A stretch of DNA of 64,000 bases. Source: Nitrospirota bacterium. Its GTDB lineage: Bacteria; Nitrospirota; JACRHJ01. Numbering within the stretch: the first letter of the stretch is position 1; each line of letters opens with the position of its first letter. Under the pieces are notes generated by a model. The model was given only the letters and a program-made list of their open reading frames with translations, was not told the origin of the DNA and made no database searches. Position numbers and translations under genes: made by a program. The stretch covers positions 3,204 through 67,203 of the forward strand of contig JBARKJ010000046.1 in the NCBI GenBank assembly GCA_049801375.1, written 5' to 3'. Positions 1,842 to 34,849 of this stretch are shown one piece after another.

Positions 1842-2960
1842 TTATATTACTTTCTCGTAAACCTCAAGCGTCTTGTGGAGAGTTTTTTCCCAGGTGAAGT
1901 TTTCTGCCTTATCTCTGGCCCTTTTGCCCGTTTCATTCCGCGCCTTTTCGCATGAAAGGTACTGAAGCGTAGCCGCAAGCCCCGCTGCGTCCTCAGGGTC
2001 ATTCAGCACGAAGCCGTCTACACCGTCTTCCATAACCTCCGCCACGCCATTTTGAGAGGTGGTTATTACGGGCAGGCCGGATGCCATTGCCTCCAGGCAG
2101 GAGTTGGAAAACGGGTCGTACTTAGTCGGCAGGACATAAATATCCGACGCGCCGTAAATAGATTCAGGGTCCCGGACATGGCCTGTAAAAACCAGCCTGT
2201 CGGCTACTCCCAATTTTCTTGCCAGTTTGAGGAATGGCTTCGGGTCGTCTTTTCCCGCCACCAACAGTTTCAAATCGCTGATATTTCCCTCCATGTCCTT
2301 CGCGTACCACAGTGCCTTGATGGCCGTCTGAAGCCCTTTTCTTCTGAACCCTGCCCCCATGAAAAGCGCGACCGGCTCATCGTTAAAACCATATTTTTGC
2401 CGGGACTCATGCCTGTTCAGCTTGATGTTGACCGGATTAAATTTCATAAGGTCAACTCCGTTGTAGGCCACGAAAACCTTCTCCGGCGGGATAGGATAGT
2501 GTTTGAGAAGACCTTCCTTGGAGAACTCGGAGTTGGTTATGACCGCCTTGCAACCTCCCGGCCGGTAACGGTCCCTTTCCATATTCAGGATAACCCGGTG
2601 CAGCGGGTTCAGAAAAGTAAAGCGCTTTCCCATCCTTTCCAGGTACTCGGCATGGCACCCGCCGCCTACAGTTACCACCCCGTCGGTGAACGGCCTTATC
2701 TGGTTATGCACCAGGTCTATATCCCTCCTGCCGGACAGCATCCGGCTGAGGTTGTTTTTAAAGCTTGATACCTTCAAAAAAGAAGGCCCCGCCGCGATCT
2801 TGACGATATTTACTTCCGCCTTGAAATCCGGCTCCTCAGATGTAGCCGCAAATATAGAGACATCGTGCCCGGCATCAACGAGTCCTCTGGCCAGATTCCA
2901 CGTGCGCCTCTCGCTCCCGCCTTTTCTGTCGAAGCGGATGGATGCTATAGCGATTCGCAT
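1842..2960 (-). CDS. Glycosyltransferase family 4 (GT-B; WaaG-like LPS glycosyltransferase)
   Basis: 372 aa. N-terminal MRIAIASIRFDRKGGSER and C-terminal EAMASGLPVITT, typical of GT1/GT4 retaining transferases. Sits within a heptose/LPS gene neighbourhood. Confidence 0.8.
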   Translation of the reverse strand: MRIAIASIRFDRKGGSERRTWNLARGLVDAGHDVSIFAATSEEPDFKAEVNIVKIAAGPSFLKVSSFKNNLSRMLSGRRDIDLVHNQIRPFTDGVVTVGGGCHAEYLERMGKRFTFLNPLHRVILNMERDRYRPGGCKAVITNSEFSKEGLLKHYPIPPEKVFVAYNGVDLMKFNPVNIKLNRHESRQKYGFNDEPVALFMGAGFRRKGLQTAIKALWYAKDMEGNISDLKLLVAGKDDPKPFLKLARKLGVADRLVFTGHVRDPESIYGASDIYVLPTKYDPFSNSCLEAMASGLPVITTSQNGVAEVMEDGVDGFVLNDPEDAAGLAATLQYLSCEKARNETGKRARDKAENFTWEKTLHKTLEVYEKVI

Positions 2961-3133
2961 ACCCGCGCCTTCCGGTATATTTCCCTGATAAGCTTTTCCT
3001 TGATAAAATTGCCGGCAGTCAAGATGTCGTTCAATGGGCCGTCGGTGAGTTTAGTAAACGTACTGGACACGGATTTCCCGTTCCTCCAGCCAATGATTGC
3101 TTCGGTAGGCTGCAGGCGGAAAAATTCACTCAT
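2945..3133 (-). CDS. Hypothetical small protein (62 aa) filling the gap between the methyltransferase and GT4 genes
   Basis: The ORF start ATG forms an ATGA overlap with the stop of the upstream methyltransferase gene, and its 3' end overlaps the GT4 start by 16 nt. No recognisable domain. Confidence 0.25.
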   Translation of the reverse strand: MSEFFRLQPTEAIIGWRNGKSVSSTFTKLTDGPLNDILTAGNFIKEKLIREIYRKARVCESL

Positions 3134-3963
3134 GGTTGTTTAAATACAATTCGCTTGATTGATTTTTTTACAGGTTGGATTAATTTTTTTCTTACATATC
3201 TCTCACATTTTTTTAGCAGCCCAGGATTGTGTTCATTCCTTAGTTTTTCGACCTGATTTTCAAGCGACTGCTTTTGAACATTATTTTTGCCCAAGAATTG
3301 GAAAAATTCATTTATGGTTTCCGACTCTTCCTGGCTGGCATTGAATAATGCATTCAATTCCATAGGAAATTCTTTCCCGACACCAATAATTCCCAATCCG
3401 GACCCAAACTTGAACTCAAAATTAGGATAAACGTTCTTCAACTCAGCCCACAAACGCCAAACGCCGAAATCTCTTTCATGCACAGCCGAGTCGTGAAACA
3501 TTATTATTCCACGACTGCTTAATTTGGGAAGCCATGTCTCGAAATCGTTTTTAACTGCTTCATAGCTGTGGAAACCGTCAATATGGAGCAGATCTATAGA
3601 GCCATTTTTGAAATCGTTGACTGCTTCATCGAAAGTCTTCCTTAATAAATGGGAAAATCGCCCGTATAAAGGATCGTGATGCGAACGCAGATCCTGCAGC
3701 ACAGTATCTTCATAACGGCCGCAATGCTCGTCGCCGCACCATGTATCAACTCCATAACAGGTAGTATCCAGACGCAATACATCTACAGCCTGACAGAAAG
3801 CGCAATAAGATTCCCCCGTATTGACGCCCAGCTCGACGAGTATTCGTGGCTTTATCATCTGAATAAGCGCTAAGGCAAAGGGTATATGCTCAGACCATGC
3901 CTTTATCTTAAGCCTGCGCGGCTGCATGAGGCATAACGGATAATTCAAGGGATTAAACGGCAT
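3130..3963 (-). CDS. Class I SAM-dependent methyltransferase (Methyltransf_24 / CmcI-like) with a C-terminal coiled-coil and basic tail
   Basis: 277 aa. ILVELGVNTGESY (SAM-binding G-rich motif) and LLHIDGFHSYEAVKNDFETWLPKLSSRGIIMFHD match the CmcI/TylF-like sugar O-methyltransferase pattern. C-terminal tail ...ERYVRKKLIQPVKKSIKRIVFKQP. Confidence 0.75.
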   Translation of the reverse strand: MPFNPLNYPLCLMQPRRLKIKAWSEHIPFALALIQMIKPRILVELGVNTGESYCAFCQAVDVLRLDTTCYGVDTWCGDEHCGRYEDTVLQDLRSHHDPLYGRFSHLLRKTFDEAVNDFKNGSIDLLHIDGFHSYEAVKNDFETWLPKLSSRGIIMFHDSAVHERDFGVWRLWAELKNVYPNFEFKFGSGLGIIGVGKEFPMELNALFNASQEESETINEFFQFLGKNNVQKQSLENQVEKLRNEHNPGLLKKCERYVRKKLIQPVKKSIKRIVFKQP

Positions 3964-4138
3964 GTTATTTCTTGCCTCTTTCTTTATGTGGGGTGTTTTC
4001 AGAATTGGCCTATTTGTTACTACTTTTCGCCTTAATTGTCAAGCCTTTATAAGCTAAATTATTATTCTGATTGTGAAAAATCCTTTGATATATCTAACAA
4101 TTATGATATTATTGCCCGCAATGGGAGGTTTTTTAAAG
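3964..4138. promoter_or_regulatory. AT-rich divergent intergenic region; contains a GGAGG Shine-Dalgarno ~10 nt upstream of the acetyltransferase ATG at 4139
   Basis: The only sizeable non-coding gap in the glycan locus, lying between divergently transcribed genes. TTGTCA / TATAAG-like hexamers are present, but promoters cannot be assigned confidently. Confidence 0.3.
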
Positions 4139-4750
4139 ATGTCTCTTTTCAAGAGGAACAGACAGCAAAAAGAAGAGACTAATAAAAAAAATTCAATTTA
4201 TACAAAAGATATTTTTGAGGGCTCGGAATCTGTCATAGCCGGTGATTTTTCATACGGTAGCCCAAAAGTTATGGAGTGGAAGGACGGGCATACACGGCTG
4301 GTAATCGGTAAATTCTGCTCTATTTCATCTGATGTCGTTATAATTCTGGGAGGCAACCACCGGACCGACTGGGTGACCACCTATCCGTTTCCCGCACTTG
4401 CCCAGGATTGGCCGGGCGCTTCAGAAATAAAAGGTCATCCAGCTACCAAGGGAGACATAATAATCGGCAACGATGTCTGGATATGTTACGGGGCGACGAT
4501 ATTATCAGGCGTAGTCATCGGTGACGGAGCAGTGATCGGAGCAAGGTCGGTGGTTTCGGACGCTGTAGCGCCATACTCGATCGTTGCAGGTAATCCGGCA
4601 AGAGAAATAAGGAAGCGCTTTGATGACGCCACTATAAAAATGCTTTTGGAACTTAAATGGTGGGACTGGCCGCTGGACAGGATAAAAAAGAATATGCATA
4701 TTTTGTGCGGATGCGATTTTGAGCATCTTTTTAAAACAAATGAAGGCTAA
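4139..4750 (+). CDS. Xenobiotic acetyltransferase family (CatB / Vat-type hexapeptide-repeat acetyltransferase)
   Basis: The track ORF spans 4073-4750; the start was chosen at Met23 (ATG 4139) because a GGAGG RBS precedes it and the length matches CatB. LVIGKFCSISSDVVIILGGNHRTDW, IIGNDVWICYGATILSGVVIGDGAVIG and a C-terminal LLELKWWDWPLDRIKKNMHILC are near-diagnostic of the CatB/Vat XAT family. Confidence 0.8.
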   Translation: MSLFKRNRQQKEETNKKNSIYTKDIFEGSESVIAGDFSYGSPKVMEWKDGHTRLVIGKFCSISSDVVIILGGNHRTDWVTTYPFPALAQDWPGASEIKGHPATKGDIIIGNDVWICYGATILSGVVIGDGAVIGARSVVSDAVAPYSIVAGNPAREIRKRFDDATIKMLLELKWWDWPLDRIKKNMHILCGCDFEHLFKTNEG

Positions 4751-4762
4751 GAAGGAATCTGA

Positions 4763-5614
4763 ATGATAATAATTACGGGAATAGGAAGGTCTGGAACCAG
4801 CTTTACCGCAAAGGTGCTGAGCGATGCTGGAGCTAATTTAAAGGGCGACTGGTTCGACGAGAAGATAAGGGCGGGAATGGAATACAAAAAGGTGGCCGAA
4901 ATAAACAACCTGCTTATACAGGGGTCGGCCTCTTCGCTGGATATGGCAATCTCAAGATTAGGCCAGTCCGAAATAAAATCCGAACTCTCAGGATCCGTTA
5001 TAATCAAAGACCCCAGGTTCGTGCTGACGCTGGATTTATGGTTGGCGGCAGGAACAGATGTAGAGCATATCGTATATTGCGCAAGGGATTATAAGGAGAT
5101 ATTCGACAGCTCTTTGAAGACTGGCGTCGGCGGCGTTGGGGACGTCAGCAACGGCGTCTTTATCCCAACCTTTAACGGCGCGAAAGTGTATTTTACTTAC
5201 CTGGAGAGGATGTTCTTCAAGTTGGCCAAAGACCATGGTATCCCCATTACCACAGTCAACTTCCCTCTGAGCGCGGAGAACTTCTCCGAGTTTGAAAAAC
5301 TGGCCTTCCTTGCCGACAAAGAAAGGCTCAGGAATTCCTGGGAGAAGCTGAGGAGGCCGAGAGAGATAGGCAGCCATGCCGCCCGCGTCAACGTGCCCGA
5401 CGACGATCAGAGATTACGCGACGCTTTCGTGCAGCTCAGCCAAAAAGAACAAGAATTGGCGGAACTGAAGGCGAAGCTTGCCGAATCGGCCAAAGTCCGG
5501 GACAGTCTTCCCCGAAAACTCGAAAGGACTTTTAGAAAAAAACTGGTCCATCCGGTCCGGAAAAGGATTTACTCCTGTTTAAAAAATATGGTTATTCGAT
5601 TTAATGGAAGATAA
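4763..5614 (+). CDS. Sulfotransferase-family protein (PAPS-binding 5'-PSB-like GIGRSGTS and 3'-PB-like KDPR motifs) with a C-terminal coiled-coil and basic tail
   Basis: 283 aa. N-terminal MIIITGIGRSGTSF P-loop-like motif and IIKDPRFVLTLD resemble Sulfotransfer_3 proteins. C-terminal QKEQELAELKAKLAES...ERTFRKKLVHPVRKRIYSCLKN. Confidence 0.55.
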   Translation: MIIITGIGRSGTSFTAKVLSDAGANLKGDWFDEKIRAGMEYKKVAEINNLLIQGSASSLDMAISRLGQSEIKSELSGSVIIKDPRFVLTLDLWLAAGTDVEHIVYCARDYKEIFDSSLKTGVGGVGDVSNGVFIPTFNGAKVYFTYLERMFFKLAKDHGIPITTVNFPLSAENFSEFEKLAFLADKERLRNSWEKLRRPREIGSHAARVNVPDDDQRLRDAFVQLSQKEQELAELKAKLAESAKVRDSLPRKLERTFRKKLVHPVRKRIYSCLKNMVIRFNGR

Positions 5615-6800
5615 AAAAACCGTCAGCATTATAACGGTCAACCTTAACGGCAAAATGCTCCTGGCCGATCTGCTGCAGTCTGTCCGCGAACTGGAATACC
5701 CGCGCGAGCTCCTGGAGGTAATCGTCGTGGACAACGGCTCCGATGACGGCTCGGTTGACTACCTTGAGGAAAATTACCCGGAGGTCAAGATCATAAGGAA
5801 CGAGCGGAACATGGGTTTCGCCTATCCTTGCAACCAGGGCGCACAGGCCGCGTCCGGCAGTTACCTTGCTTTTGTAAACAACGATATGAAGCTGGACGGA
5901 CGTTGGGTGGACGAAATGCTCCGGCATATCGGCGGGGACGGAAAGACAGTCTGCGTCGGTTCAAAAATACTGAATGCAGACGGGACGAAGATAGACTTCA
6001 TCGGGGGCATAGTCAATTACATTGGCATGGGGTATCAGAAAAACTTCCGCAAAGACGCCTCCCTTTACAACGAAACTGTTCCGAATGAGCTACTTTTCGC
6101 ATGCGGAGGCGCGATGCTCATAGACAGGAAGGTTTTCCTGGAGGTCGGCGCTTTCGATGACGATTATTTCGCATTCTTTGAGGACGTGGACCTTGGCTGG
6201 AGGCTTTGGGTGCTTGGTTATAAAGTTGTCTTTGCTCCTGGCGCCGCGGCTTACCACAAGCACCACCAGACCGCGAAATTGATCTCAAAACAGATGTTGA
6301 TGACGTTGTACGAAAGAAACAGTCTCTATACCATCTACAAGAACTACGGCGTGGAAAACCTGACTAAAGCTTTTACCGTAGTCTACCTCATGTCCTCGGT
6401 TCGCCTCGCGGATTCCCTCAGGCTGAACATCTCCAAATATGTAATAAACGACCCCCTCTTTGTGAACCGTTCGGTTGGGAGAAAGAGAAGCGCAATAAAG
6501 AAGGCTTACTGGAAGCTGGCGGGTTTCTTCCTCGACACCCTCGCCAGTCTTTTGTTGGATTTCAGGTTACGCTCCCGCATGTGCGCCCCTGCACGGCGCG
6601 AGCATTTCTCACCGGCGGTGGCCGCCGCCCATTTCGGTTTCAATCTCGAACGGATGGCGGAGAAAAGAGATCTTATACAGAGAAACCGTAAAAGAAGCGA
6701 TGGCGAGATACTGGAGCTTTTCAAGGATTCGTTTGGACTGGATACCGTCGAGGCAAATTACAACCGGCTCGCCATGCTCGCCAAAAAATTTCTAGATTAA
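5604..6800 (+). CDS. Glycosyltransferase family 2 (rhamnosyl/galactofuranosyl-transferase-like, GT-A fold)
   Basis: 398 aa. VSIITVNLNGKMLLADLLQSV...VIVVDNGSDDGS (DxD-type GT-A N-terminus), NMGFAYPCNQGA, and FFEDVDLGWRL, typical of WbbL-like GT2 enzymes. Confidence 0.8.
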   Translation: MEDKKTVSIITVNLNGKMLLADLLQSVRELEYPRELLEVIVVDNGSDDGSVDYLEENYPEVKIIRNERNMGFAYPCNQGAQAASGSYLAFVNNDMKLDGRWVDEMLRHIGGDGKTVCVGSKILNADGTKIDFIGGIVNYIGMGYQKNFRKDASLYNETVPNELLFACGGAMLIDRKVFLEVGAFDDDYFAFFEDVDLGWRLWVLGYKVVFAPGAAAYHKHHQTAKLISKQMLMTLYERNSLYTIYKNYGVENLTKAFTVVYLMSSVRLADSLRLNISKYVINDPLFVNRSVGRKRSAIKKAYWKLAGFFLDTLASLLLDFRLRSRMCAPARREHFSPAVAAAHFGFNLERMAEKRDLIQRNRKRSDGEILELFKDSFGLDTVEANYNRLAMLAKKFLD

Positions 6801-6809
6801 GCATCCCGG

Positions 6810-7997
6810 ATGGAAAAAAAACCAAAAATACTTTGCGTCACTCCGGAAGTGGACGCCCCGTTCATCATCAATATCCTCCAGCCGCTTGAGATATTGAAAG
6901 CCCGGGGCGAAGCCGTGTTTACCGTGAAAAAAGAAAAAGACGCGCTGATACATGACGCGATGCGCCATGACATCATACTTTTTTTCAGGAACTCATCTCC
7001 CGCCAGATTGAAGTTGCTGCATTTCTCGAAGCTTGCCGGAAAACTGGTCATCTATTCCGTGGACGATAATTTTTTCGAGTTGGCATCTTCCGAAAAAGGG
7101 CCGATGGACGCTCTCCTGCTGGATGCCCATTCACGTTATATGCAGAAGTCCGACATCGTCCTTGTATACTCGGATCCTATGGTGGAACAGGCCTCCCGGC
7201 TTAACCTGAACGTTATAAAGATGCTTCCGGGAGGCATAGATTTTTCCAGATTCGGCGGCATCGGGAGACGGCGGGATAAAAAAGACAAGATCCGCATAAT
7301 CTACGCCACGTCGCGTTTCGGAAACGACATACTCTCAAAGCAGTTCCTGCCCGCCCTGAAAAAAATATTAACCGAGTACAAAGGACGGGTGGAGATGGAC
7401 CTGTGGGGGTTCAGGCCCGTTGAGCTCGAAGGTATTCCGGGAGTGGGCTATGCCCAAAAGATGGATTATCTCACATACATCAAGCGTCTTTATGCTGAGG
7501 ATTTCGATATAGGACTGGCCCCATTGCAGGATGACCTGTTCCACCGGTCAAAGACGAACACAAAACTCAGGGATTACGGCGCGTGCGGCATCGCGGGAAT
7601 TTATTCAAATGTGGACGTTTATTCGGATTGCGTTTCGGATGGCAAGACGGGCCTGCTAGTGGACAATACCGACGACGCATGGTATCAGGCTATGAAGAAA
7701 TTAATAGATGATGAAACACTCAGAGAATCCATAAAAAAGAACGCGCACCAGTACGTCAGGACTAATTATGATATGAAAGCGACGGCGGACATGTTCTACG
7801 ATATATTCAGCAAAGCGGCAGACGATTTTAACCGAGAGGCGAAAAAGCTACCGACGAATATCAGATTAATTTCCGGTTTCCTGGATATCTCAATGATATT
7901 TCGGGTGCGCCTTAAAACAAACCTCAAGGCACTAGAGCATTCTTTCCGGAAATACGTCCGCGATCCGCTGAGAGATTTATTCAGGAAGAGGCTGTAA
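6810..7997 (+). CDS. Glycosyltransferase (GT4-like C-terminal domain) with a basic C-terminal tail
   Basis: 395 aa. C-terminal half GKTGLLVDNTDDAWYQAMKKLIDDETLRESIKKNAHQYVRTNYD resembles GT1/GT4 nucleotide-sugar binding domains. Tail ...HSFRKYVRDPLRDLFRKRL. The 3' end overlaps the convergent GT4 gene by 17 nt. Confidence 0.65.
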   Translation: MEKKPKILCVTPEVDAPFIINILQPLEILKARGEAVFTVKKEKDALIHDAMRHDIILFFRNSSPARLKLLHFSKLAGKLVIYSVDDNFFELASSEKGPMDALLLDAHSRYMQKSDIVLVYSDPMVEQASRLNLNVIKMLPGGIDFSRFGGIGRRRDKKDKIRIIYATSRFGNDILSKQFLPALKKILTEYKGRVEMDLWGFRPVELEGIPGVGYAQKMDYLTYIKRLYAEDFDIGLAPLQDDLFHRSKTNTKLRDYGACGIAGIYSNVDVYSDCVSDGKTGLLVDNTDDAWYQAMKKLIDDETLRESIKKNAHQYVRTNYDMKATADMFYDIFSKAADDFNREAKKLPTNIRLISGFLDISMIFRVRLKTNLKALEHSFRKYVRDPLRDLFRKRL

Positions 7998-8982
7998 CGA
8001 TCTCCTCAATCAGGGAAATATATTCTTTAAGGTAGCCTTCGCGGGAGTACCTTTCCGCAACCGTCTTCCGTCCTTCGGCCCCCATCTTTTTTCTAAGCGA
8101 GGCATCGGCTATTAGCTCCGCAAGGCGCGCTTCCCACTCGTCAGGATTGCCGGCGAGGAACCCGTTTACGCCGTCTTTGATAATTTCGCAGTTTATCCCT
8201 ACCGGCGACGCAACAGCCGGCACGCCCACCGAGAAATACTGGAGTATTTTGAACCCGCACTTGCCCCTACTCCATATATCGTCCGTAAGGGGCATAAGCC
8301 CGATGTCCATCTCGCGCAGGAATTCCAACTCATTTTCTGTGCTCCATATTCTTTTATTTATCTTGATCCCTTCAATGTCGGGGAAATCGCTGCATACTAC
8401 TGAAAGGGAGACGTAAGAAAATTTCCGGGCGAGGTTTTGAAATACCGGGGCCAGAGCTTTAAGATAAAAGAGGTTCCCCTCCATGCCGATCCAGCCGATT
8501 TTGACTTCCTCAGCTTTCTTATCGCCCGGACTATATTTTGCCGTATCCACAGGGGTAGAAAGTATTACAGGCTCCTTTCCAGCCTTCCTCGCCTCTTCGG
8601 CTAGAAAAGAATTTCCCGCCACGACGGCATCTGCTGATGCAACTACCTTCCTGAACTTCCTGAGGCTTTTATCTCCTGGTCTGCTGCATCTTTTTTCAGC
8701 ATACATCACTGCATCGTCAAAATCATACAAGATGTTTCGGCAAATTCGCGATAGGATAGCTATTTCAAAAGGCTTCAGAAGCTTTCTGTGCAGGATGACA
8801 ATATCTGAACCCGCAATTTTCAGATATAGCCGAAGCCTCCCAATTGCCCCACTTGGCACCGGCAAATACAGGCATTTATGGCCTCTCGCGCACATCTCCT
8901 GGTAAAGAGGCAATATCCGGTGCCTGCTGCTCGGATCACTCTCTTTGTGCACAACGAAAGCTATCTTCTTCGGTTCAGGCAT
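7981..8982 (-). CDS. Glycosyltransferase family 4
   Basis: 333 aa. GLMPLTDDIWSRGKCGFKILQYFSVGVPAVASPVGINCEIIKDGVNGFLAGNPDEW is the GT4 E-x7-E region. Confidence 0.8.
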   Translation of the reverse strand: MPEPKKIAFVVHKESDPSSRHRILPLYQEMCARGHKCLYLPVPSGAIGRLRLYLKIAGSDIVILHRKLLKPFEIAILSRICRNILYDFDDAVMYAEKRCSRPGDKSLRKFRKVVASADAVVAGNSFLAEEARKAGKEPVILSTPVDTAKYSPGDKKAEEVKIGWIGMEGNLFYLKALAPVFQNLARKFSYVSLSVVCSDFPDIEGIKINKRIWSTENELEFLREMDIGLMPLTDDIWSRGKCGFKILQYFSVGVPAVASPVGINCEIIKDGVNGFLAGNPDEWEARLAELIADASLRKKMGAEGRKTVAERYSREGYLKEYISLIEEIVTASS

Positions 8983-10810
8983 GGCTCTCCCAGATGCCCA
9001 TTACCAGCAAGGCCCAAAGCCTGTTTGCATGGTTCCTTTCTCCAGAGAAATGTTCCCGCATCAACTTCTCTATATATATCTGATTAAAGAACTCGCCTAT
9101 AATGCCCGAATTTTTCAGAACCCGCTCAGTCTTCTCGCGAAGAGGCCCTTTAAGCCATTCTCCGACCGGAATGCTGAAGCCTTTTTTACGCCTATCAATC
9201 AGGCTGTCGGGTATCTTCCCCCTCATTGCCTCTTTGAGAATATATTTTGTAACCCCACTTTTAACTTTAAATGAAGAAGGGAGCGACGCCGAAAATTCCA
9301 GCAGCTCATGGTCCAGGAACGGCGAACGCACCTCCAGCGAATTAGCCATGCTGGCGATATCCATCTTTACCAGCAGGTCACCCGGAAGGTAATGGTTGAA
9401 ATCCAACGCCAGCATTTTGTCCAGGGGTGAGAGATTCTCGATACCATCGGATAATCCCGAGGAGATCTCTTCCCATCTCGTACCCGATACCGCGCTTCTC
9501 ATCCTTTTATTATAAAGAAGCTCTTTCATGTACGGCAGAAAAAAATCTGAATAGTATAAAGATTGAGCCTGCGGCTGGAATGATTTCAGAATTTTATGCT
9601 TTAGTTTGCCGGCAGGATTTTTGCAATTAAATACATGCGCCATATTATTCGAAAGCAGCGCCGGCATCATTGTCTGCAGGAGCCGCAGTTTGTATTTGTC
9701 ATACCCTGCAAAGTTCTCGTCTCCGCCGTCTCCATTTAAAGCCACGGTGACAAACTTTCGGGCCATTTTAGAAACATAAAATGACGGCACCGCAGATTTA
9801 TCCGCAAACGGTTCTCCATAGACCTTCGGCAAGAAGTCCAATGTTGAGCCGATTTCCGGGTCAACTACCAGCTCGTGTATCTCTGAACTGCAATGCATTG
9901 CCGCTTCTCTGGCGAAGGGCAGTTCGTTGTGTTTCTCTTCTTCGAAACCGATAGAAAAGCTTTTTATCTTTCCTGACGCGGCCCTTGACATAAAATATAA
10001 AATCGCACTTGAGTCCAGACCTCCGGAGAGGAGCGCGCCAAGAGGGACATCACTTATCATCCGCAGACGCACAGCTTCTTCTAGCCGCCTCAGGATCTCC
10101 TCTTTGGCTTCTCTTTCACTGATATTTATTTTTTTTGAATAATCGAGTTTCCAGTACCTTTCTATGGAAACAGCGCCGTCCTTCACTACCATGTAATGGG
10201 CTGGTGGAAGTTTCCTAATGCCTCTATAAATCGAATAGGGGTGCGGGATGAACTGCCAGGAAAGGTAAAGGTCGAGTGATTCCAGGTCCAGGGTCCGGTC
10301 TACATCAGGGTCCTTCAGGAGCGAATTGATTTCGGAAGAAAAGCTTATCCAGTTCTTCCCCTGGGCATATACCAGCGGTTTTTTCCCGACCCTGTCGCGT
10401 GCCATGAACAGCTTACGTTCTTTTTCATCCCAAATGGCGAAAGCAAACATGCCTCGGAGGTATCGGAGACAATCGATTCCATATTCTTCATAAAGGTGTA
10501 CCAGCACCTCCGTATCAGTACGGCTTTTGAAATCATGCCCTTTCATTAAAAGCGAGTCCCGAAGCTGTGCAAAGTTATAAATCTCTCCGTTCAAAACAAC
10601 CCAGATGTCGCCCCGTTCATTTGAAATAGGCTGTTTGCCGCCCCGGACATCTATGATGGACAGCCGGCGCATGCCTAGGCCCGTGCCGCCTTTCAGATAA
10701 AATCCCCGGTCGTCAGGTCCGCGGTGTGTCATTGCATCAGTCATCGCGCCGATTAAAGCTGAATCGACGGGGGTGGCGTCAAAATTTATCTTGCCGCATA
10801 TCCCGCACAT
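8975..10810 (-). CDS. asnB: Asparagine synthetase B-type glutamine amidotransferase (AsnB/WbpS-like; likely sugar-acid amidotransferase in the glycan pathway)
   Basis: 611 aa. N-terminal MCGICG (Ntn-type catalytic Cys2) and SGGLDSS PP-loop ATP pyrophosphatase motif. Confidence 0.85.
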   Translation of the reverse strand: MCGICGKINFDATPVDSALIGAMTDAMTHRGPDDRGFYLKGGTGLGMRRLSIIDVRGGKQPISNERGDIWVVLNGEIYNFAQLRDSLLMKGHDFKSRTDTEVLVHLYEEYGIDCLRYLRGMFAFAIWDEKERKLFMARDRVGKKPLVYAQGKNWISFSSEINSLLKDPDVDRTLDLESLDLYLSWQFIPHPYSIYRGIRKLPPAHYMVVKDGAVSIERYWKLDYSKKINISEREAKEEILRRLEEAVRLRMISDVPLGALLSGGLDSSAILYFMSRAASGKIKSFSIGFEEEKHNELPFAREAAMHCSSEIHELVVDPEIGSTLDFLPKVYGEPFADKSAVPSFYVSKMARKFVTVALNGDGGDENFAGYDKYKLRLLQTMMPALLSNNMAHVFNCKNPAGKLKHKILKSFQPQAQSLYYSDFFLPYMKELLYNKRMRSAVSGTRWEEISSGLSDGIENLSPLDKMLALDFNHYLPGDLLVKMDIASMANSLEVRSPFLDHELLEFSASLPSSFKVKSGVTKYILKEAMRGKIPDSLIDRRKKGFSIPVGEWLKGPLREKTERVLKNSGIIGEFFNQIYIEKLMREHFSGERNHANRLWALLVMGIWESHA

Positions 10811-13733: not shown

Positions 13734-13901
13734 TTATGGAAGCTTCTCCGCCTCGTCGATGAGCATCACGGGTATGTCGTCTTTTACCGGATACTTCAGC
13801 TTGCACGCGTCGCAGACAAGGCCATCGCCGTTTTCAGTCAGCCGGATATCTCCCTTGCACTTCGGGCAGGCCAGAATTTCAAGGAGTTCCTTGCTTATCA
13901 T
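13734..13901 (-). CDS. ycaR: Trm112-like small protein (YcaR / UPF0434 family, DUF343)
   Basis: 55 aa, not in the ORF track because it is below 60 aa. MISKELLEILACPKCKGDIRLTENGDGLVCDACKLKYPVKDDIPVMLIDEAEKLP matches the L-x-I-L-ACP-x-CKG ... C-x2-C ... YP ... GIP-x-ML consensus of YcaR/Trm112. Its stop abuts the start of the GT2 gene. Confidence 0.7.
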   Translation of the reverse strand: MISKELLEILACPKCKGDIRLTENGDGLVCDACKLKYPVKDDIPVMLIDEAEKLP

Positions 13902-14937
13902 CTTTTCCCTCCAGCATCTCCTCCGCCGTACGGAGGACGTCTTCGACAGTAATCTCCTTCATGCACCGCATATTATGTTTTGTGTCCGGGCAGTTCTTCT
14001 TTAAACACGGAGCACAGGGAGCGCTGGAGGTGATTACCCTGTGGCCGCTTCCATAAGGGCCTGTGCGTTCCGGAATTGTCGGGCCGAATATCGCCAGCAC
14101 GTCCGTACCAACTGCCGCCGCAACGTGCATTGGACCTGAGTCGTTGGTTATCATAAGCTTTGCTTTGCCGAGTAACGCGGCAAGACCTTTCAGAGAGGTC
14201 TTTCCGAAAGCAAGGTTCTCATGGCCCGTCCGGTCTTCAAATGCGGACATCACGCCTGCTTCATCCGCGCTCCCTACAAAGATGTATTTCAGCCCTATGC
14301 TTTCCTTAAGCGCCTGGGCTAGGCGGACGAAATTCTCCGCGGGCCACCGCTTGGTGATCCATCTCGCCGAGGGCGCGAGGGCTATGAATTCATCGCCTTC
14401 GTTTATACCCGCATCTTTTAAAACCCGACCCGCCTCGATTAAGTCTTCCCGGCTAGCGGGAATATTGAATTCGGGCGCCTCGGGCGCCGGAATGCCGAAA
14501 GCTTTTAGAGTAAGAAGGTAGCGGTCCACGGCGTGCATTTCCGGGTCCGGCACGGAGATTTTTTTATTATAGAAAAAATGAGCGCCCTCCCGCGCGCTCC
14601 CCAGGCCGATTTTTTTCCCGGCCCTGCACGCATAGATCATAATCCCGCTCCGGAGGAGTCCCTGGAGGTCAATCGCCGCGTCGTACTCCTCGGCCCTCAG
14701 CGCCTTTATAAACCTCGACAGCTCGCCGCACCCGCTCTTCGATCTGTCGAAGGCGATGACGTTCGTTATCGCGGGATGGCCGCTGAGTACCGGCTCATAC
14801 GCCTTAAAGACCACCCAGTCCACCCGCAGCCCGGGTACCGCCTTTTTCAGCGCCGCCGCGACCGGCAGGGCATGGATTATATCCCCCAGCGAACTCGGCT
14901 TTATTATCAGGACTTTCTTGAGTCGCCGATTATCCAA
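13879..14937 (-). CDS. Glycosyltransferase family 9 (LPS heptosyltransferase, WaaC-like heptosyltransferase I candidate)
   Basis: 352 aa. KKVLIIKPSSLGDIIHALPVAAAL...VDWVV, typical of WaaC. C-terminal APCAPCLKKNCPDTKHNMRC Cys motif. Confidence 0.7.
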   Translation of the reverse strand: MDNRRLKKVLIIKPSSLGDIIHALPVAAALKKAVPGLRVDWVVFKAYEPVLSGHPAITNVIAFDRSKSGCGELSRFIKALRAEEYDAAIDLQGLLRSGIMIYACRAGKKIGLGSAREGAHFFYNKKISVPDPEMHAVDRYLLTLKAFGIPAPEAPEFNIPASREDLIEAGRVLKDAGINEGDEFIALAPSARWITKRWPAENFVRLAQALKESIGLKYIFVGSADEAGVMSAFEDRTGHENLAFGKTSLKGLAALLGKAKLMITNDSGPMHVAAAVGTDVLAIFGPTIPERTGPYGSGHRVITSSAPCAPCLKKNCPDTKHNMRCMKEITVEDVLRTAEEMLEGKDDKQGTP

Positions 14938-20317: not shown

Positions 20318-20945
20318 CAGTTATCCGCCCTGTCCGTCAATTCGCGCATCCGCCTCTCCAGCTCGGCCCGGAGGGCTTCCGCCGTCTCTTTATCGGCGTC
20401 TCTCGGGACGAATAGCGGCTCTCCGTAGATCGCAACGGCCTGTGTGAAGGGGTAAGGGATGATGAAGCTATCCCAGGATTTTAAAGTTTTTTTTTGCGTG
20501 CGGAATATGTAAGGGGATATATCGGGAGGCCGGTCGCCTTCGCCGCCTGGATTACTCCCGGCTGGACGACGTACCTGGGGCCCTTGGGGCCGTCGGGAGT
20601 GAACGCGATGCTGAAGCCTTCGCGGGCGAGCTTTATCAGTTCTTTAAGCGCCGATATACCGCCGCGGGTCGTCGAGCCGCGCGAGGAGGCGATGCCGAAA
20701 TACTTTACCAGCCTGGCTATAAGCTCCCCGTCCTTGTGCCTGCTGACCATCACGGAGGACGGGCGGGAGAGCTTCATGAACGGCATCAGGAGTATCCTGC
20801 CGTGCCAGAACGAGAATATAAGCTGCGTGTCTTTCGGAGGACGGTTTATCACCTTAAGGCGCAGCGTGAGCCGTAAGAGCTTCAATAAGACCGCACCCAG
20901 AAACGGGCCGGCAAGTATCAGTAGTTTGTCAGAGCGTTTCGACAT
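20302..20945 (-). pseudogene. DUF374 (waaA-associated lysophospholipid-acyltransferase-superfamily) gene interrupted by a -1 frameshift in an A9 homopolymer (20487-20495)
   Basis: The track ORF 20481-20945 (154 aa, ...FWHGRILLMP...ITPDGPKGPR-like motifs) stops right after KKK encoded by AAAAAAAAA. Adding one A gives ...RKKKTLKSWDSFIIPYPFTQAVAIYGEPLFVPRDADKETAEALRAELERRMRELTDRADNWWGPK* ending at 20302, which is the expected DUF374 C-terminus (SWDxFxIPxPF...). Confidence 0.6.
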
Positions 20946-22683
20946 TCTCAGTCTTAAGCTTCCCGAACTGCATATCGTAGAGCCGCTTATAGATGCGGCT
21001 TTTTTCCAGGAGTTCGGAATGCTTTCCTATGTCGGTTACTTTGCCGCCGCTTATTACGACTATTTTGTCCGCGTTTATTATCGTGGAGAGCCTGTGGGCT
21101 ATTACCAGGGTCGTCCTGTTCTTCATAAGGTTCTCAAGGGCCTGCTGGACTATCCTCTCCGACTCGGTATCAAGGCTCGATGTGGCCTCGTCCAGGATGA
21201 GTATCTGGCTGTTCTTTAAGATGGCGCGCGCTATCGAAATCCTCTGCTTCTCGCCTCCGGATAGCCGGAAGCCCTTCTCGCCGATTATGGTATTGTATTT
21301 CTTCGGGAGCTTGTCTATGAATATGTCCGCGTGGGCGGCGCGCGCCGCCGCGGCGACCATCTCCTCTGTAAACTCTTCCTTGCCGTAGGCGATATTGTTG
21401 CGGATGGTGTCGTTGAACAATATCGTATCCTGAGTCACTACCGCGATGTTCTGACGGAGCGTCTTCAACTGAAAGCCCCTTGTGTCCTGGCCGTCAATCA
21501 ATATCGCGCCTTCCTGAAGCTCGTAGAAGCGCGGGAGAAGGTTTGCCAATGTTGTTTTTCCGCCGCCTGACGCCCCGACTACCGCGACTACTTCGCCTTT
21601 TTTTATGGTAAGGTCCACGTCCTTCAGGACGTAGTCCTCTTTTTCGTTGTACTTGAAGCTCACGCCGCGGTACTGAATATTGTCTTTTATCCCCTCAGGG
21701 CCGGAAATGCCCCTGGACATCGCCTCCTTCTCGTTCGCGGTATCGAATACCTTAAAAATCCTCTCGGTAGCGGATATACCCGACTGCAGACTGTTATGCA
21801 GGCCGCCGAGCGTTTTTACCGGGCCGTACAACATAAAAAGCGCCGCCGTAAAGGAAAAGAATCCGCCGGGCGTCATTGCATGAGTGGTAACCTTGTGGCC
21901 GCCGTAGAATATTATAATCGCCATGGTAAGCCCGCCCAGCAAATCAAGGGTTGGGGAGAGCAGGCTATTTATTTTGGCGTTCTTTATCTGGAGTTTTGTA
22001 AATCTCTCGTGCTCCTCCATGAACTTCTCGTCTTCCCGGTCCTCCATCGTAAACGCCTTCACAATCCTGCTGCCGGTGAAGCTCTCCTGGAGGGTGCTCA
22101 TGATGCCGGCGATGGACTCCTGGGATTTACGGCTGAGTTTGCGCGTCTTCTTGCCGTATTTGGAAATTAAAACTCCCATAAGCGGCATTATTATAATGGC
22201 TATGGTCGCGAGCTTCCAGTCCCTCATGAAGAGCACGACGACCAGACCCACGATGGAGAACGACTGCTGGAGGGTGTCCTTCACTAAATTTCCGGCCAGA
22301 CTGCTTAAGGCCCCAACGTCGTTTATGACATGGGAAATCAATCTCCCGGTATTGGTGGCCTGATATTCCTTGAGCGGGAGATAGACCATGTGGGTGTATA
22401 GGTCGTTACGGATATCTTTTATTATATTGAACGACGCGTACTGCGTCAGGTAGGACTGGAAATACGTGAACACGTTTTTTATCAAGTAGACGGCAAACAC
22501 CGCGAACGACAACGGGGCAAGTTTTGTGGTATCGGCCTTGACGAAAATATCGTCCAGGATGGGTTTTATCAGCCACGCGGTCGCACCGCTCGTGCCGGAC
22601 ACCACCAGCGTGCAGATTATCGCCAGGAAGGTTATCCTTAAATATTTTTTTACATAGGGCCAAAGCCTTGCAAGCAGTTCCAT
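20929..22683 (-). CDS. msbA: Lipid A export ATP-binding/permease protein (ABC exporter, type I)
   Basis: 584 aa. Six N-terminal TM helices, Walker A GASGGGKTT, signature LSGGEKQRISIARAIL, Walker B ILILDEATSSLD. Sits between lpxB and waaA. Confidence 0.85.
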   Translation of the reverse strand: MELLARLWPYVKKYLRITFLAIICTLVVSGTSGATAWLIKPILDDIFVKADTTKLAPLSFAVFAVYLIKNVFTYFQSYLTQYASFNIIKDIRNDLYTHMVYLPLKEYQATNTGRLISHVINDVGALSSLAGNLVKDTLQQSFSIVGLVVVLFMRDWKLATIAIIIMPLMGVLISKYGKKTRKLSRKSQESIAGIMSTLQESFTGSRIVKAFTMEDREDEKFMEEHERFTKLQIKNAKINSLLSPTLDLLGGLTMAIIIFYGGHKVTTHAMTPGGFFSFTAALFMLYGPVKTLGGLHNSLQSGISATERIFKVFDTANEKEAMSRGISGPEGIKDNIQYRGVSFKYNEKEDYVLKDVDLTIKKGEVVAVVGASGGGKTTLANLLPRFYELQEGAILIDGQDTRGFQLKTLRQNIAVVTQDTILFNDTIRNNIAYGKEEFTEEMVAAAARAAHADIFIDKLPKKYNTIIGEKGFRLSGGEKQRISIARAILKNSQILILDEATSSLDTESERIVQQALENLMKNRTTLVIAHRLSTIINADKIVVISGGKVTDIGKHSELLEKSRIYKRLYDMQFGKLKTENVETL

Positions 22684-22694: not shown

Positions 22695-23834
22695 TTATAT
22701 CCCGGCCTCTTTAAGCACTTCCAGGGCCGCCCTCTCCGAGGCTCCCGGACCACCCAGCTTCTCGCTGACGAAGCCCAGGTTCCGGACAATGTCGCAGTTA
22801 TATGCTTTATCATAAAACATCTTTAAAATCAAGGAACTTATCCTCTCGGGGCTCGCCTCGTCCTGTATCAGCTCCGGCACGGCCTCATGTCCCGCGATGA
22901 GGTTCGGCATCCCGATGAACGGCACGTCTATAAGCATTTTCCCCAGCCAGTAAGTAATCGGGGATAATTTATAGATTATCACCATCGGTTTTCCCTTGAG
23001 GGCGGTCTGGAGAGTTGCCGTCCCGGAAGCTACCACCGCGGCGTCCATAACCGTCATCACCCCAGGCGCATCGTCGTTTATAAGCCGCACGTCTTCATAA
23101 CCAGCCAGGTATCCCCTGAAATCATCAAGGGAAAGGGTCGGCGCAAGCGGTATTACCGCCTGGACATCCGGCATTTTAGCCTTTATCCGGGAAAACGCCT
23201 TCAACATCACCGGCAGGTGGAAGTTAAGCTCTTTTTTCCTGCTGCCGGGCAGGATTCCGAGTATGGGCTTCTGCGGGTCCAGCCCGAATTTATCCGCCAG
23301 CTCTTCTTTCGAGCGGGTCTGTGTCTCTTCATCCAGAAGCGGGTGCCCCACGAAAGAGCATTTCACGCCCGCCTCCCGGTAAACCGCCTCCTCGAAAGGA
23401 AATACCACGAGCATCCTATCCACGACCTTTGCGATGTTTTTTATTCGACCCTTGCGCCACGCCCATACCTGCGGGCTGACATAATAAACGACCTTCACCC
23501 CGGCGGCTTTGGCCTTCTTGGCCATCCGCAGGTTGAAGTCCGGGTAGTCTATCAGCACGACGGCGTCGGGCCGCTCCCGGATTATCGTCTCCTCCATGAG
23601 GTTGAACGCGGCCCTTATGTCCTTAAGGTGGGTCAGCACCTCCCATATCCCCACGACCGCAAGGCGCGAGATATCCTGGAGGGTCTTTACCCCAGCTTCC
23701 CGCATCATCTTCCCGCCCATGCCGGAGATGCTGAGGTCCGGCCTGAGGGCCATGAGCGCCTTTGCGAGGTTGCCGCCGTGCAGGTCGCCGGAGGCCTCCC
23801 CGGCGATTATCAGGATCTTTTTTTCGCGGGACAC
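22695..23834 (-). CDS. lpxB: Lipid-A-disaccharide synthase
   Basis: 379 aa. N-terminal KILIIAGEASGDLHGGNLAKAL aligns with E. coli LpxB [22 protein letters not shown]. Confidence 0.9.
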   Translation of the reverse strand: MSREKKILIIAGEASGDLHGGNLAKALMALRPDLSISGMGGKMMREAGVKTLQDISRLAVVGIWEVLTHLKDIRAAFNLMEETIIRERPDAVVLIDYPDFNLRMAKKAKAAGVKVVYYVSPQVWAWRKGRIKNIAKVVDRMLVVFPFEEAVYREAGVKCSFVGHPLLDEETQTRSKEELADKFGLDPQKPILGILPGSRKKELNFHLPVMLKAFSRIKAKMPDVQAVIPLAPTLSLDDFRGYLAGYEDVRLINDDAPGVMTVMDAAVVASGTATLQTALKGKPMVIIYKLSPITYWLGKMLIDVPFIGMPNLIAGHEAVPELIQDEASPERISSLILKMFYDKAYNCDIVRNLGFVSEKLGGPGASERAALEVLKEAGI

Positions 23835-24934: not shown

Positions 24935-24937
24935 AGT

Positions 24938-33031: not shown

Positions 33032-33486
33032 TCGAGCTTCAGGGTCATCGCTGTCTCGTTGCACTCGTCGGGATACTTGACGCACTTGTTCCGGCACTCG
33101 GTCCATACCTTCTGCGGGAGGTCGTTTTTGCTGGCCTTACGGAAACCGATTTTATCGAAGAATTCCTGGACGTACGTCAGGACGAAGACTTCCTTAACCC
33201 CCATCTCGGCGGCCTCTTCCATGCAGGCCCGGACCAGTTTTTTTCCTATGCCCTTCCCGATATGCTCCGGCGCGACCGCAACCGACCTCAGCTCGCCAAG
33301 GCCTTCCCAGCCGACATGGAGCGCGGCCACGCCTATGACTTTTCCGTTTTTTTCATAGACGCTGAAATCGCGGATGGAGTCGTACAGCTCGCCAAGCGCC
33401 CTGGGGAGCATCTCTCCCTTTTCGGCGTAGCGGTTGACCAAGTCCTTTATGACTTTTACGTCCTGGATTCGCGCTTTTCGTATCAT
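33028..33486 (-). CDS. GNAT-family N-acetyltransferase (short ArgA-like amino-acid N-acetyltransferase)
   Basis: 152 aa. ...VAVAPEHIGKGIGKKLVRACMEEAAEMGVKEVFVLT (acetyl-CoA binding Q/RxxGxG/A motif). Confidence 0.7.
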   Translation of the reverse strand: MIRKARIQDVKVIKDLVNRYAEKGEMLPRALGELYDSIRDFSVYEKNGKVIGVAALHVGWEGLGELRSVAVAPEHIGKGIGKKLVRACMEEAAEMGVKEVFVLTYVQEFFDKIGFRKASKNDLPQKVWTECRNKCVKYPDECNETAMTLKLD

Positions 33487-34765: not shown

Positions 34766-34849
34766 TAATACCTCAAGTAAATGGTGCTCATGACGGGGAA
34801 CGAGTTGGAACAGCCTCTAAAGTGTCCCGTGTTCTGCTATAATTTTATC

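Follow-up and report, generated by a model that had tools for sequence, protein, structure and literature searches.

Within a 64-kb stretch of DNA from an uncultured Nitrospirota bacterium (the window), three genes located between positions 3130 and 7997 encode enzymes of different kinds, a methyltransferase (MT), a sulfotransferase-like enzyme (ST) and a glycosyltransferase (GT), which all terminate in the same tail of ~20-25 residues, L-K-K-L-E-[R/x]-x-F-R-K-K-Φ-x-x-P-Φ-K. The resemblance is genuine and far above chance, and the tail is a portable module that recurs on other enzyme families in related loci. It is predicted to form a cationic amphipathic α-helix. We consider it about an even bet (probability roughly 0.5) that this helix is a membrane-interface anchor, perhaps a docking element too, which brings the tailoring enzymes of the cassette to the lipid-linked core oligosaccharide. 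The three open reading frames (ORFs) and the C-terminal sequences quoted in a first-pass annotation of this DNA were reproduced exactly.

The locus is a lipid A/core supercluster containing genes for heptosyltransferases, WaaA, LpxK and MsbA, and the tailed genes sit in a variable cassette of low GC content (0.47-0.49 versus 0.51-0.59 in the surroundings). The left border of the cassette is a conserved GT4 gene (1842..2960, minus strand; Pfam), orthologues of which flank the cassette in loci L001, L003, L030 and L064. The right border is a conserved glycosyltransferase gene (7981..8982, minus strand; Pfam) that is convergent with the tailed GT gene and overlaps it by 17 bp, an arrangement recurring in L001, L030 and L033. 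The cassette also includes a GT2 glycosyltransferase gene (5604..6800, plus strand; Pfam Glycos_transf_2, E = 1.1e-23), whose product gave no match to the tail HMM, and its neighbor is a tail-less hexapeptide-repeat acetyltransferase gene (4073..4750, plus strand; Pfam Hexapep) with NCBIfam matches of the CatB/Vat/WbbJ type, every one under its cut-off. The true start of the latter is probably later than 4073, because the gene was called as 203 aa in another assembly (L096). The majority of the remaining glycosyltransferases at the locus likewise have no tail according to the tail HMM. The sole flippase candidate within the supercluster is an MsbA-type ABC exporter (20929..22683, minus strand; Pfam ABC_membrane and ABC_tran). 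No Wzm/Wzt, WaaL or Wzx/Wzy genes were found within reach of the tailed genes, and a Wzt with a binding module, a WaaL and a polymerase-like multi-glycosyltransferase protein are absent from the window, its left flank and the syntenic loci alike. A single ABC-2 pair is present, 50 kb from the tailed genes, and it has no Wzt_C domain.

MT (277 aa; 3130..3963, minus strand) contains a Methyltransf_24 domain at residues 43-158 (Pfam PF13578, E = 1.3e-24), and an exact-sequence look-up returned the NCBI name class I SAM-dependent methyltransferase of a Nitrospirota bacterium. Some of its 5378 homologues are labelled "O-antigen biosynthesis protein" by their source. The MT tail, LLKKCERYVRKKLIQPVKKSIKRIVFKQP, covers residues 249-277 (3133..3219, minus strand) and scored 43 bits with the tail HMM. 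ST (283 aa; 4763..5614, plus strand) had been called a sulfotransferase in the first-pass annotation, yet it has no Pfam or NCBIfam match. The family alignment revealed invariant residues in a P-loop, G8-R-S-G-T-S13 (GRSGTS), and in R108-x7-S116, and hhalign gave a probability of 95.8% to a protein that itself matches Pfam Sulfotransfer_3. Among fold matches the sulfotransferase Teg12 ranks first, but this match is weak (E = 1.4e-2) and adenylate kinases, which are P-loop kinases, score similarly. Taken from these comparisons, ST is probably a sulfotransferase. Its tail, LPRKLERTFRKKLVHPVRKRIYSCLKNM, covers residues 249-276 (5507..5590, plus strand; 48 bits). GT (395 aa; 6810..7997, plus strand) is a GT4-like GT-B glycosyltransferase (Pfam Glycos_transf_1 and Glyco_trans_1_4). 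A Foldseek search revealed similarity with BshA, PglA and PimA (E about 1e-12), and the AlphaFold2 model has a pLDDT of 85.5. The GT tail, NLKALEHSFRKYVRDPLRDLFRKRL, covers residues 371-395 (7920..7994, plus strand; 40 bits).

A relaxed pattern written from the three window tails themselves, [RK][RK][KYR][LVI]..P[VLI][RK][KRD], matched the whole 64 kb, translated in six frames, only three times, 6-16 residues ahead of the MT, ST and GT stop codons, compared with ~0.02 matches expected by chance (a rough estimate from typical residue frequencies). For a non-circular test, an HMM was built from the tails of seven ST-like orthologues, taken from other genomes only, and was searched against 835 ORF segments obtained by translating the window in six frames. 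The ST, MT and GT tails were found with E-values of 3e-11, 9e-8 and 8e-5, respectively, and the next best segment had an E-value of ~0.7. The tail is conserved in all eight members of the ST family, with R255, R258 and P264 invariant, in ~15 GT orthologues (P0130-P0145; 50-81% identity) and in P0011 and P0014, the relatives closest to MT. It is kept among orthologues with identity as low as 41%. In a set of 20 tails, the Arg is present in every one and never replaced by Lys, and the Glu and the Pro are present in 18 each.

One might suspect that the resemblance reflects chance, a Lys-rich compositional bias, or a functionally meaningless copy made recently by duplication or gene conversion, as the motif is short and the AT-richer cassette favors Lys codons. 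However, the pattern matches, the E-values from the independent profile and the conservation among orthologues described above effectively refute this explanation, which we regard as extremely improbable. Five of the eight identical residues in the ST and MT tail cores are encoded by different codons, so the copies are old, and selection acts on the protein rather than on the DNA. Basic C-termini are also not common in the window: the net charges of the tailed proteins over the last 30 residues are +10 (MT), +9 and +7, ranking 1, 2 and 4 among 59 ORFs (mean 1.3, sd 2.7), and the remaining C-termini are not basic.

AlphaFold2 places the tail within a helix in both ST (a single continuous helix, residues 213-281, pLDDT 47-70) and GT (residues 349-394), with moderate confidence in the tail region (pLDDT 47-79). 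Averaged by column over the 20 tails, hydrophobicity shows the periodicity of an α-helix, with its maximum at 90-100° per residue (0.49 and 0.41, versus at most 0.32 at other angles). On a helix, L11, L14, F18, Φ22, P25 and Φ26 all fall within ±62° of one face and the Lys residues are opposite; the Glu is at the edge of the hydrophobic face, and four positions (i, i+4) separate the conserved Glu from the conserved Arg. Over the best 18 residues, the hydrophobic moment is 0.49-0.56 and the net charge +3 to +8. This moment is high but not exceptional, as a value this high arises in 4-16% of shuffling trials and the window has several unrelated C-termini that equal it. Among the top 120 homologues each of MT and GT, the median net charge of the last 25 residues is +5, and it looks as if a basic C-terminus is required in both families regardless of sequence class. 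Distant GT relatives, for example, have a Trp/Arg-rich tail in the equivalent position.

The first-pass annotation had also placed a coiled coil before the tail in MT and ST. By a crude heptad score of our own, such a region is short, covering ~43 residues in ST. The helical spacer of ST (residues 213-250; 5399..5512, plus strand) is heptad-like and, as indels in the alignment show, differs widely in length among orthologues. The MT spacer (residues 222-246; 3226..3300, minus strand) is short and only marginally heptad-like (~25 residues), barely exceeding the 99th percentile of windows from globular regions. No coiled coil is evident in GT; its AlphaFold2 secondary structure and pLDDT profile reveal instead a low-confidence hinge (residues 343-348) between the GT-B catalytic fold and the long C-terminal helix (residues 349-394; 7854..7991, plus strand). 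The spacers are ~25-45 residues long in the window enzymes, and they are absent in the proteins P0003 and P0253.

The tail was found on at least seven catalytic families: Methyltransf_24, Methyltransf_11, Methyltransf_23, two sulfotransferase families, GT4-like and GT2. In related loci it is C-terminal, N-terminal or located between two fused domains, and all carriers with a taxonomic name belong to Nitrospirota.

We favor a role of the tail at the membrane interface. The cassette would encode soluble catalytic domains, a methyltransferase, a sulfotransferase-like enzyme and a glycosyltransferase, each tethered to the tail helix via a flexible or helical spacer. The helix would lie in the cytoplasmic leaflet of the inner membrane with its narrow hydrophobic face inserted, and its Lys and Arg residues may interact with the head groups of anionic lipids, or with acceptor phosphates and Kdo carboxylates. 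The tailoring enzymes would thereby be concentrated where the lipid-linked core oligosaccharide is assembled, ahead of MsbA-type flipping, and the spacer length would set the reach of the active site from the membrane. Membrane binding is predicted here from simple physicochemical measures. The genomic setting fits such an anchor, as the tailed genes are found in the MsbA-containing lipid A/core supercluster or, in some loci, with an MsbA/PglK-like exporter gene immediately upstream. It speaks against the anchor that most other glycosyltransferases of the locus have no tail. It is also unusual for generic membrane helices to preserve particular polar residues, and the invariant Arg and the nearly invariant Glu and Pro therefore suggest a contact more specific than generic membrane binding.

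Alternatively, the tail could be a short linear motif for specific docking, either on a single shared partner, for which the MsbA/PglK-type exporter and one of the conserved glycosyltransferases at the cassette borders are candidates, or on the other tails in a bundle. The cassette enzymes would in this way be joined in a multi-enzyme complex for core tailoring. Their closeness to the membrane would follow from docking and not be the function, although the docking and anchor readings are compatible. We hold this explanation to be possible but somewhat unlikely. It is in agreement with the sequence-specific conservation across unrelated catalytic families, with the sharing of one tail class by several enzymes of a locus (three each in the window, L001 and L030, and at least four in L032), with the restriction of another tail class, SWKITAPLR, to MT alone in its MT-family loci, and with the MsbA-like genes that immediately precede the ST-like gene in both L005 and L064. 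Moreover, the membrane-proximal region of WbdD recruits the polymerase WbdA (PMC11231755). However, the carrier in L031 is outside any glycan locus and adjoins an SMC gene, and the Glu and Arg might simply form an intrahelical salt bridge.

The first-pass annotation suggested that MT and ST might be WbdD-like terminators of an ABC-transporter-dependent O-polysaccharide, in which the coiled coil would be a molecular ruler, the tail would dock them on polymerase and membrane, and methyl and sulfate would be alternative non-reducing-end caps. In WbdD of E. coli O9a and K. pneumoniae O3 and O5, and in related coiled-coil chain terminators, one or more N-terminal tailoring domains and a helical or coiled-coil spacer are indeed followed by an amphipathic helix at the C-terminus that associates with the membrane (PMC11231755, PMC3447403), and the order of catalytic domain, helical spacer and basic amphipathic end helix seen here matches it. 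The variable spacer length in ST orthologues is consistent with it, as is the MT relative P0110 (57% identity), which adjoins Wzm and a Wzt carrying Wzt_C, the classical terminator setting. L064 encodes a methyltransferase fused to an ST-like P-loop domain with one tail, recalling the bifunctional WbdD, but this fusion points to cooperation of the two activities and not to competing caps. The lipid A/core setting with MsbA and without Wzm/Wzt does not agree with the model, and the spacers are far shorter than the "extended" ruler of WbdD (PMC11231755). The presence of the tail on glycosyltransferases, a second methyltransferase family and other sulfotransferases, and at N-terminal or internal positions, means that it is no polymerase-docking device peculiar to terminators. 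Searches with MT and ST against PDB sequences, WbdD included, gave no match. The locus data lend no support to chain termination or to methyl and sulfate as competing caps, and we consider the terminator model improbable.

The anchor that we favor has precedents in the amphipathic helix of WbdD and in PglH of Campylobacter jejuni. PglH is a GT4-type enzyme of the same GT-B fold class as the window GT and acts on a lipid-linked oligosaccharide; its cationic amphipathic "ruler helix" serves both for membrane attachment and, via spaced Lys/Arg residues, for binding the pyrophosphate of the lipid-linked substrate (PMC5792488). The likeness drawn here is one of helix character and fold class; the ruler helix is α2 inside the N-terminal domain rather than a detachable terminal module, and it is not common to different enzyme families.

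Terminal amphipathic helices that target proteins to membranes include the membrane-targeting sequences of MinD and FtsA, the C-terminal anchor of PBP5 and the N-terminal helix of TagB. Like the tail, these are short, basic, attached by a flexible linker and portable in principle. They are conserved by physicochemical pattern and not by sequence, whereas the Arg, Glu and Pro of the tail are nearly invariant across unrelated enzyme families. In the eukaryotic Alg13-Alg14 enzyme, a C-terminal helix recruits the soluble glycosyltransferase subunit to its membrane partner. That system involves one enzyme with one dedicated partner and has no sequence relationship to the tail, but in both cases a C-terminal helix would bring a soluble sugar-transfer domain to the site of lipid-linked oligosaccharide assembly.

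The methyltransferase (MT; 3130-3963, minus strand), the sulfotransferase-like P-loop enzyme (ST; 4763-5614, plus strand) and the GT4-like glycosyltransferase (GT; 6810-7997, plus strand) had been reported in the first-pass annotation to end with the same short basic motif, and the three C-termini quoted there match the sequence exactly. A relaxed regular expression found three matches in the six-frame translation of all 64 kb, located 6-16 residues before the MT, ST and GT stops. Because this expression was derived from the three tails themselves and was thus circular, we built an independent profile from the tails of seven ST orthologues of other genomes and searched it against the 835 six-frame ORF segments of the window. 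The ST, MT and GT tails were recovered with E-values of 3e-11, 9e-8 and 8e-5, respectively, and all other segments had E-values of 0.7 or worse. The element is longer than originally described, with the consensus L-K-K-L-E-R-x-F-R-K-K-Φ-x-x-P-Φ-K; across 20 aligned tails, the Arg is invariant, and the Glu and the Pro are each present in 18. The annotation had itself named ordinary basic C-termini in this proteome as a possible refutation. This is ruled out by a window-wide ranking, in which the net charges of the last 30 residues of the three proteins (+10, +9 and +7) take ranks 1, 2 and 4 of 59 ORFs (mean 1.3, sd 2.7). The 3' ends are also not products of recent gene conversion or duplication: the tail DNA sequences of ST, MT and GT are not close, and of the eight residues that the ST and MT cores share, five are encoded by different codons. 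The similarity is therefore preserved at the protein level and does not stem from a recent copy. Conservation among orthologues was found as well: every one of the eight ST-family members (41-58% identity) has the tail, as do about fifteen GT orthologues (50-81% identity). Among 5378 MT homologues, it occurs only in the closest relatives (P0011 and P0014) and partially in P0010. The shared tail is a real, statistically solid and lineage-restricted protein module.

MT is a class I SAM-dependent methyltransferase of the Pfam family Methyltransf_24 (87.5 bits against a cut-off of 26.3, residues 43-158). GT is a GT4-like enzyme of the GT-B fold, with a Pfam Glycos_transf_1 match of 31.4 bits against a cut-off of 26.4; its AlphaFold2 model (pLDDT 85.5) resembles BshA, PglA and PimA in a Foldseek search (E 3e-13 to 1e-11, TM about 0.6). 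No Pfam or NCBIfam match was obtained for ST. Its P-loop, T-G-x-G-R-S-G-T-S at residues 5-13, is invariant in 8/8 family members except at x (residue 7), as are R108 and S116, whose R-x7-S spacing equals that of RDPRDVVVS in P0250, a protein with a Pfam-verified Sulfotransfer_1 domain. We take the N-terminal P-loop to be the 5'-phosphosulfate-binding loop and R-x7-S to be the sulfotransferase 3'-phosphate motif. An hhalign comparison of the ST family profile with an actinobacterial protein passing Pfam Sulfotransfer_3 gave a probability of 95.8% and an E-value of 6.7e-9 over the N-terminal 108 columns only. The best Foldseek match of ST is the sulfotransferase Teg12, a weak one (E 1.4e-2) with adenylate kinases scoring similarly. 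We call ST sulfotransferase-like and regard it as a probable member of the PAPS-dependent P-loop superfamily.

AlphaFold2 predicts the tails of ST and GT to be helical. In ST, the tail lies inside a continuous helix (residues 213-281) predicted with moderate confidence in a model whose overall pLDDT is only 70, and in GT it lies inside a helix (residues 349-394) that a low-confidence hinge sets apart from the well-predicted GT-B fold. Hydrophobicity averaged by column over 20 tails shows its strongest periodicity at 90-100° per residue. On the helical wheel, one face gathers the Pro and the conserved hydrophobic positions, all within ±62°, the Lys residues lie opposite, and the conserved Glu (+42°) and the invariant Arg (+82°) are spaced i, i+4. 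The hydrophobic moments are 0.49-0.56 and the net charges +3 to +8. With the HeliQuest discriminant, D = 0.944 μH + 0.33 z, hand arithmetic on these values gives D of about 1.5-3.1, which exceeds the value usually read as lipid binding. In sequence and model, the tails therefore have the character of C-terminal amphipathic helices, and their association with the membrane is a prediction. The features of an in-plane amphipathic anchor also appear to be present, namely a segregated hydrophobic face, flanking basic residues and a predicted position outside the folded domain. The coiled coil proposed to precede the tail is the weaker part of the observation: a crude home-made score detected a heptad-like stretch of ~43 residues in ST, but only a marginal one of ~25 in MT, and the same score found no heptad-like segment in the carriers P0003 and P0253. 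The helical spacer before the tail ranges from none to about 110 residues among orthologues; within the ST family, where the tail is kept throughout, this linker varies from about 20 to about 110 residues.

Searched against 1.84 billion representative proteins, the tail profile returned only nine matches at E <= 1e-3. Two of them, P0249 and P0252, match through repeated LFYIPWMKRIET units, look like translated DNA repeat arrays and were discarded as spurious. A degenerate DNA pattern gave 62 matches in metagenome contigs, almost all by chance; L064 emerged as the one clear new carrier locus, and L082 as a single doubtful case. Neither scan supports the idea that the tail is widely distributed. 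In tail-HMM scans of related loci, true matches scored 16-57 bits over a background below 7. A genome scan for the ST family found one close relative only, in a Nitrospirae bin; the others were distant Sulfotransfer_3 proteins from Chloroflexota and Actinomycetota, whose loci gave no tail-HMM match. All taxonomically named carriers are Nitrospirota.

The tail is a portable module. Besides MT, ST and GT in the window, the carriers in locus L001 are an ST-like protein, a double sulfotransferase and a 510-aa GT. The closest relative, L030, carries it on a double sulfotransferase, a GT and a stand-alone Sulfotransfer_1 protein, and L032 on an ST-like protein, the Methyltransf_11 enzyme P0253, a GT1 enzyme and a GT2/GT92-like enzyme, the last recognized by eye. 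Further carriers are the Sulfotransfer_3-like P0251 and a GT in L033, an ST-like protein and a GT2 in L005, and an MT24 enzyme in L031 that lies outside any glycan locus. In L064, a 531-aa fusion of an ST-like domain with Methyltransf_23 (4887-6482, plus strand) bears a single terminal tail, and its ST-like domain is 45% identical to ST over 217 residues. The tail module was thus observed on at least seven catalytic families. An ST-like gene is immediately followed by a class I methyltransferase gene in L005 and L032; this adjacency and the L064 fusion suggest that the two activities are functionally coupled. The position of the motif also varies: it lies between the domains of the ~587-aa double sulfotransferases (L001:10823-12592 and L030:5592-7355) and at the N-terminus of the Sulfotransfer_1 protein (L030:7379-8227).

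Other tails occur in the MT family. Homologues P0009-P0128 have catalytic domains 50-60% identical, followed after the coiled coil by several unrelated tail classes; among these 120 proteins, ~33 end with S-W-[KR]-I-T-A-P-L-R, ~17 with YE.V...MRAYRILKDEG and ~10 with LPPGTRRR. It therefore appears that members of this family often exchange tails. The core of the first class, K-I-x-x-P-L-R, is loosely similar to K-K-I-x-x-P-V-K of the present tail. One MT relative with that tail, P0110, adjoins Wzm and a Wzt with Wzt_C, the classical setting of a terminator. No second gene with a SWKITAPLR tail was found in the P0110 locus or in L007, and a general rule that each glycan locus places its own tail class on several enzymes was not supported, as the MT-family enzyme alone has this tail in L007 and L008.

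The window comes from an uncultured Nitrospirota bacterium, and the MT, ST and GT proteins are identical to NCBI proteins encoded on an 88.5-kb MAG contig. The three genes lie close to the left border of an extensive lipid A/core supercluster. An RfaE-type kinase (814-1800, minus) and a GT4 (1842-2960, minus) precede MT. A hexapeptide acetyltransferase (4073-4750, plus) separates MT from ST, and a GT2 (5604-6800, plus) lies between ST and GT. A further GT (7981-8982, minus) and an AsnB-like amidotransferase (8975-10810, minus) come next, followed beyond 10810 by a GT4, three heptosyltransferases, a GT2, a GmhB-like HAD protein, LpxL, LpxK, WaaA, DUF374 and MsbA, and then by LpxB, a DegT aminotransferase with a GFO oxidoreductase, LpxI, LpxA, FabZ, LpxD, Skp and BamA. 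To the left of the window, the contig carries an HldD-like epimerase and KdsB. The loci L001, L003/L009, L030, L032 and L064 are syntenic with the window around the same core-biosynthesis genes, and the genes between two conserved GTs vary by genome, with the tail carriers falling in this variable cassette. The outer-core cassette at ~2-12 kb has a GC content of 0.47-0.49, compared with 0.51-0.59 elsewhere in the window. Such differences in gene content between syntenic loci would be expected of a hypervariable glycan cassette that is exchanged horizontally. From the gene content, we predict that the LPS core of these organisms is methylated and acetylated, and probably sulfated.

Pfam annotation took in 39 of the larger window ORFs, spanning 814-47790 together with the ABC-2 pair at 57055-58754, as well as the left flank of the window. 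No Wzm/Wzt, WaaL or Wzx/Wzy was found in this annotated part or in L001, L003/L009, L030, L032 and L064. The ABC-2 pair, the only one among these window ORFs, was set aside as a Wzm/Wzt candidate, being 50 kb away and without Wzt_C; it is ~9 kb beyond a group of lipid-biosynthesis-like genes. An exporter of the MsbA/PglK type is encoded directly upstream of the ST-like gene in L005 and L064; in the window, the MsbA gene follows 13 kb downstream, still within the supercluster.

Several other features of the window were recorded. The last codons of GT overlap the 3' end of the convergent conserved GT by 17 bp (7981-7997), and in L001 and L033 this gene pair is likewise convergent and immediately adjacent. 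A small ORF (13734-13958, minus) lies between the GT2 and a heptosyltransferase. At the equivalent position, L001, L003, L030 and L032 carry a gene of 55 aa with a Trm112p match, so this ORF may encode the same conserved small core-locus protein. The amidotransferase at 8975-10810, of the asparagine-synthase type and located within the core-GT block, has as its closest NCBIfam the XrtA/PEP-CTERM-system amidotransferase (587 bits, below the cut-off of 817), and may amidate a uronic acid or a Kdo-type core residue. At 23810-26703, the DegT-type aminotransferase and the GFO/IDH/MocA oxidoreductase adjoin LpxB, with LpxI also present. This pair is like GnnA/GnnB and would point to a 2,3-diamino-2,3-dideoxyglucose-based lipid A, and LpxI implies the LpxI route in place of LpxH. 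The region 31907-47790 encodes three radical-SAM proteins (one HemN-like with HemN_C, one with a SPASM domain and one with a B12-binding domain), a second lipid A-type acyltransferase, two amine-oxidase/desaturase-like flavoproteins, an amidohydrolase, an FMN reductase, a cyclase and two tandem ketoacyl synthases. Together with the ABC-2 pair further on, it may represent an uncharacterised lipid or polyene biosynthesis cluster.

The most likely reading is that the module places these enzymes at their substrate. Soluble tailoring domains acquired in the variable cassette would be tethered through a hinge or a short helical spacer to the cationic amphipathic helix, which would lie in the cytoplasmic leaflet. 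The enzymes would thereby be held where the lipid A-linked oligosaccharide, or in L005 perhaps a polyprenol-linked one, is extended before being flipped by the MsbA-type exporter, and the spacer would limit the reach of the active site. The data show the module, its conservation, its predicted helicity and amphipathicity, its portability and its genomic setting, whereas membrane binding, the nature of the acceptor and a possible function as a ruler are inferred. A basic interfacial C-terminus seems to be a general requirement, because the last 25 residues in both the MT and GT families carry a median net charge of +5 irrespective of tail class, and distant GT relatives have a Trp/Arg-rich tail at the equivalent position. 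This argues that the present motif is one solution to a general need.

The near-invariance of Arg, Glu and Pro exceeds what a generic membrane helix needs, as does the recurrence of the tail on several enzymes within a locus. For these reasons, a specific contact of the tail with a common protein partner, with other tails or with anionic groups of the acceptor stays a serious alternative, compatible with membrane placement; the ruler helix of PglH is a precedent for contact with the acceptor's anionic groups (PMC5792488). Carried further, the tail could be an address code, a lineage-specific docking helix whose receptor would be the MsbA/PglK-type exporter, a conserved core GT or the anionic inner core/lipid A of the acceptor, with tail and spacer together selecting the sugar to be modified. 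We consider this speculative, at roughly one chance in five. Interchangeable, horizontally swapped methyl-, sulfo- and glycosyltransferases would then plug into a modular, "plug-and-play" line for LPS core diversification, and a specific docking code of this kind for a modular core-tailoring complex would make the finding considerably more interesting. If placement by the tail holds, the module would serve as a simple marker by which the tailoring enzymes of this system can be recognised in Nitrospirota metagenome sequences. It would also exemplify how soluble enzymes, once acquired, become adapted in nature to a lipid-linked substrate, and would supply a compact tag that could be tested for directing enzymes to the inner membrane of bacteria.

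The first-pass annotation had raised the possibility that MT and ST are WbdD-like chain terminators adding competing or alternative methyl and sulfate caps. Terminators of the WbdD type combine a catalytic domain, a coiled-coil ruler and an amphipathic helix near the membrane, with a site that recruits the polymerase (PMC11231755, PMC3447403), and the order of parts in MT and ST matches this in outline. However, neither shows a sequence relationship to WbdD: a phmmer search of all PDB chains, including the WbdD structures, returned nothing at E <= 0.01 for MT and only noise (E >= 0.25) for ST. Furthermore, their locus is a lipid A/core locus with MsbA and no Wzm/Wzt among the annotated ORFs, their heptad-like spacers are short by the crude score, and the present tail is not confined to terminator-type enzymes. 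The WbdD-like model is therefore only partly supported: the architectural analogy stands, but chain termination and competing caps are unsupported.

Terminal amphipathic helices and WbdD-style spacers are known means of placing glycan enzymes at the membrane, and they are usually idiosyncratic to one protein. Here, a single module with a conserved sequence recurs on at least seven catalytic families, in the hypervariable part of an LPS core locus of a poorly studied phylum. The tail is thus a known principle, the terminal amphipathic helix, in a new form.
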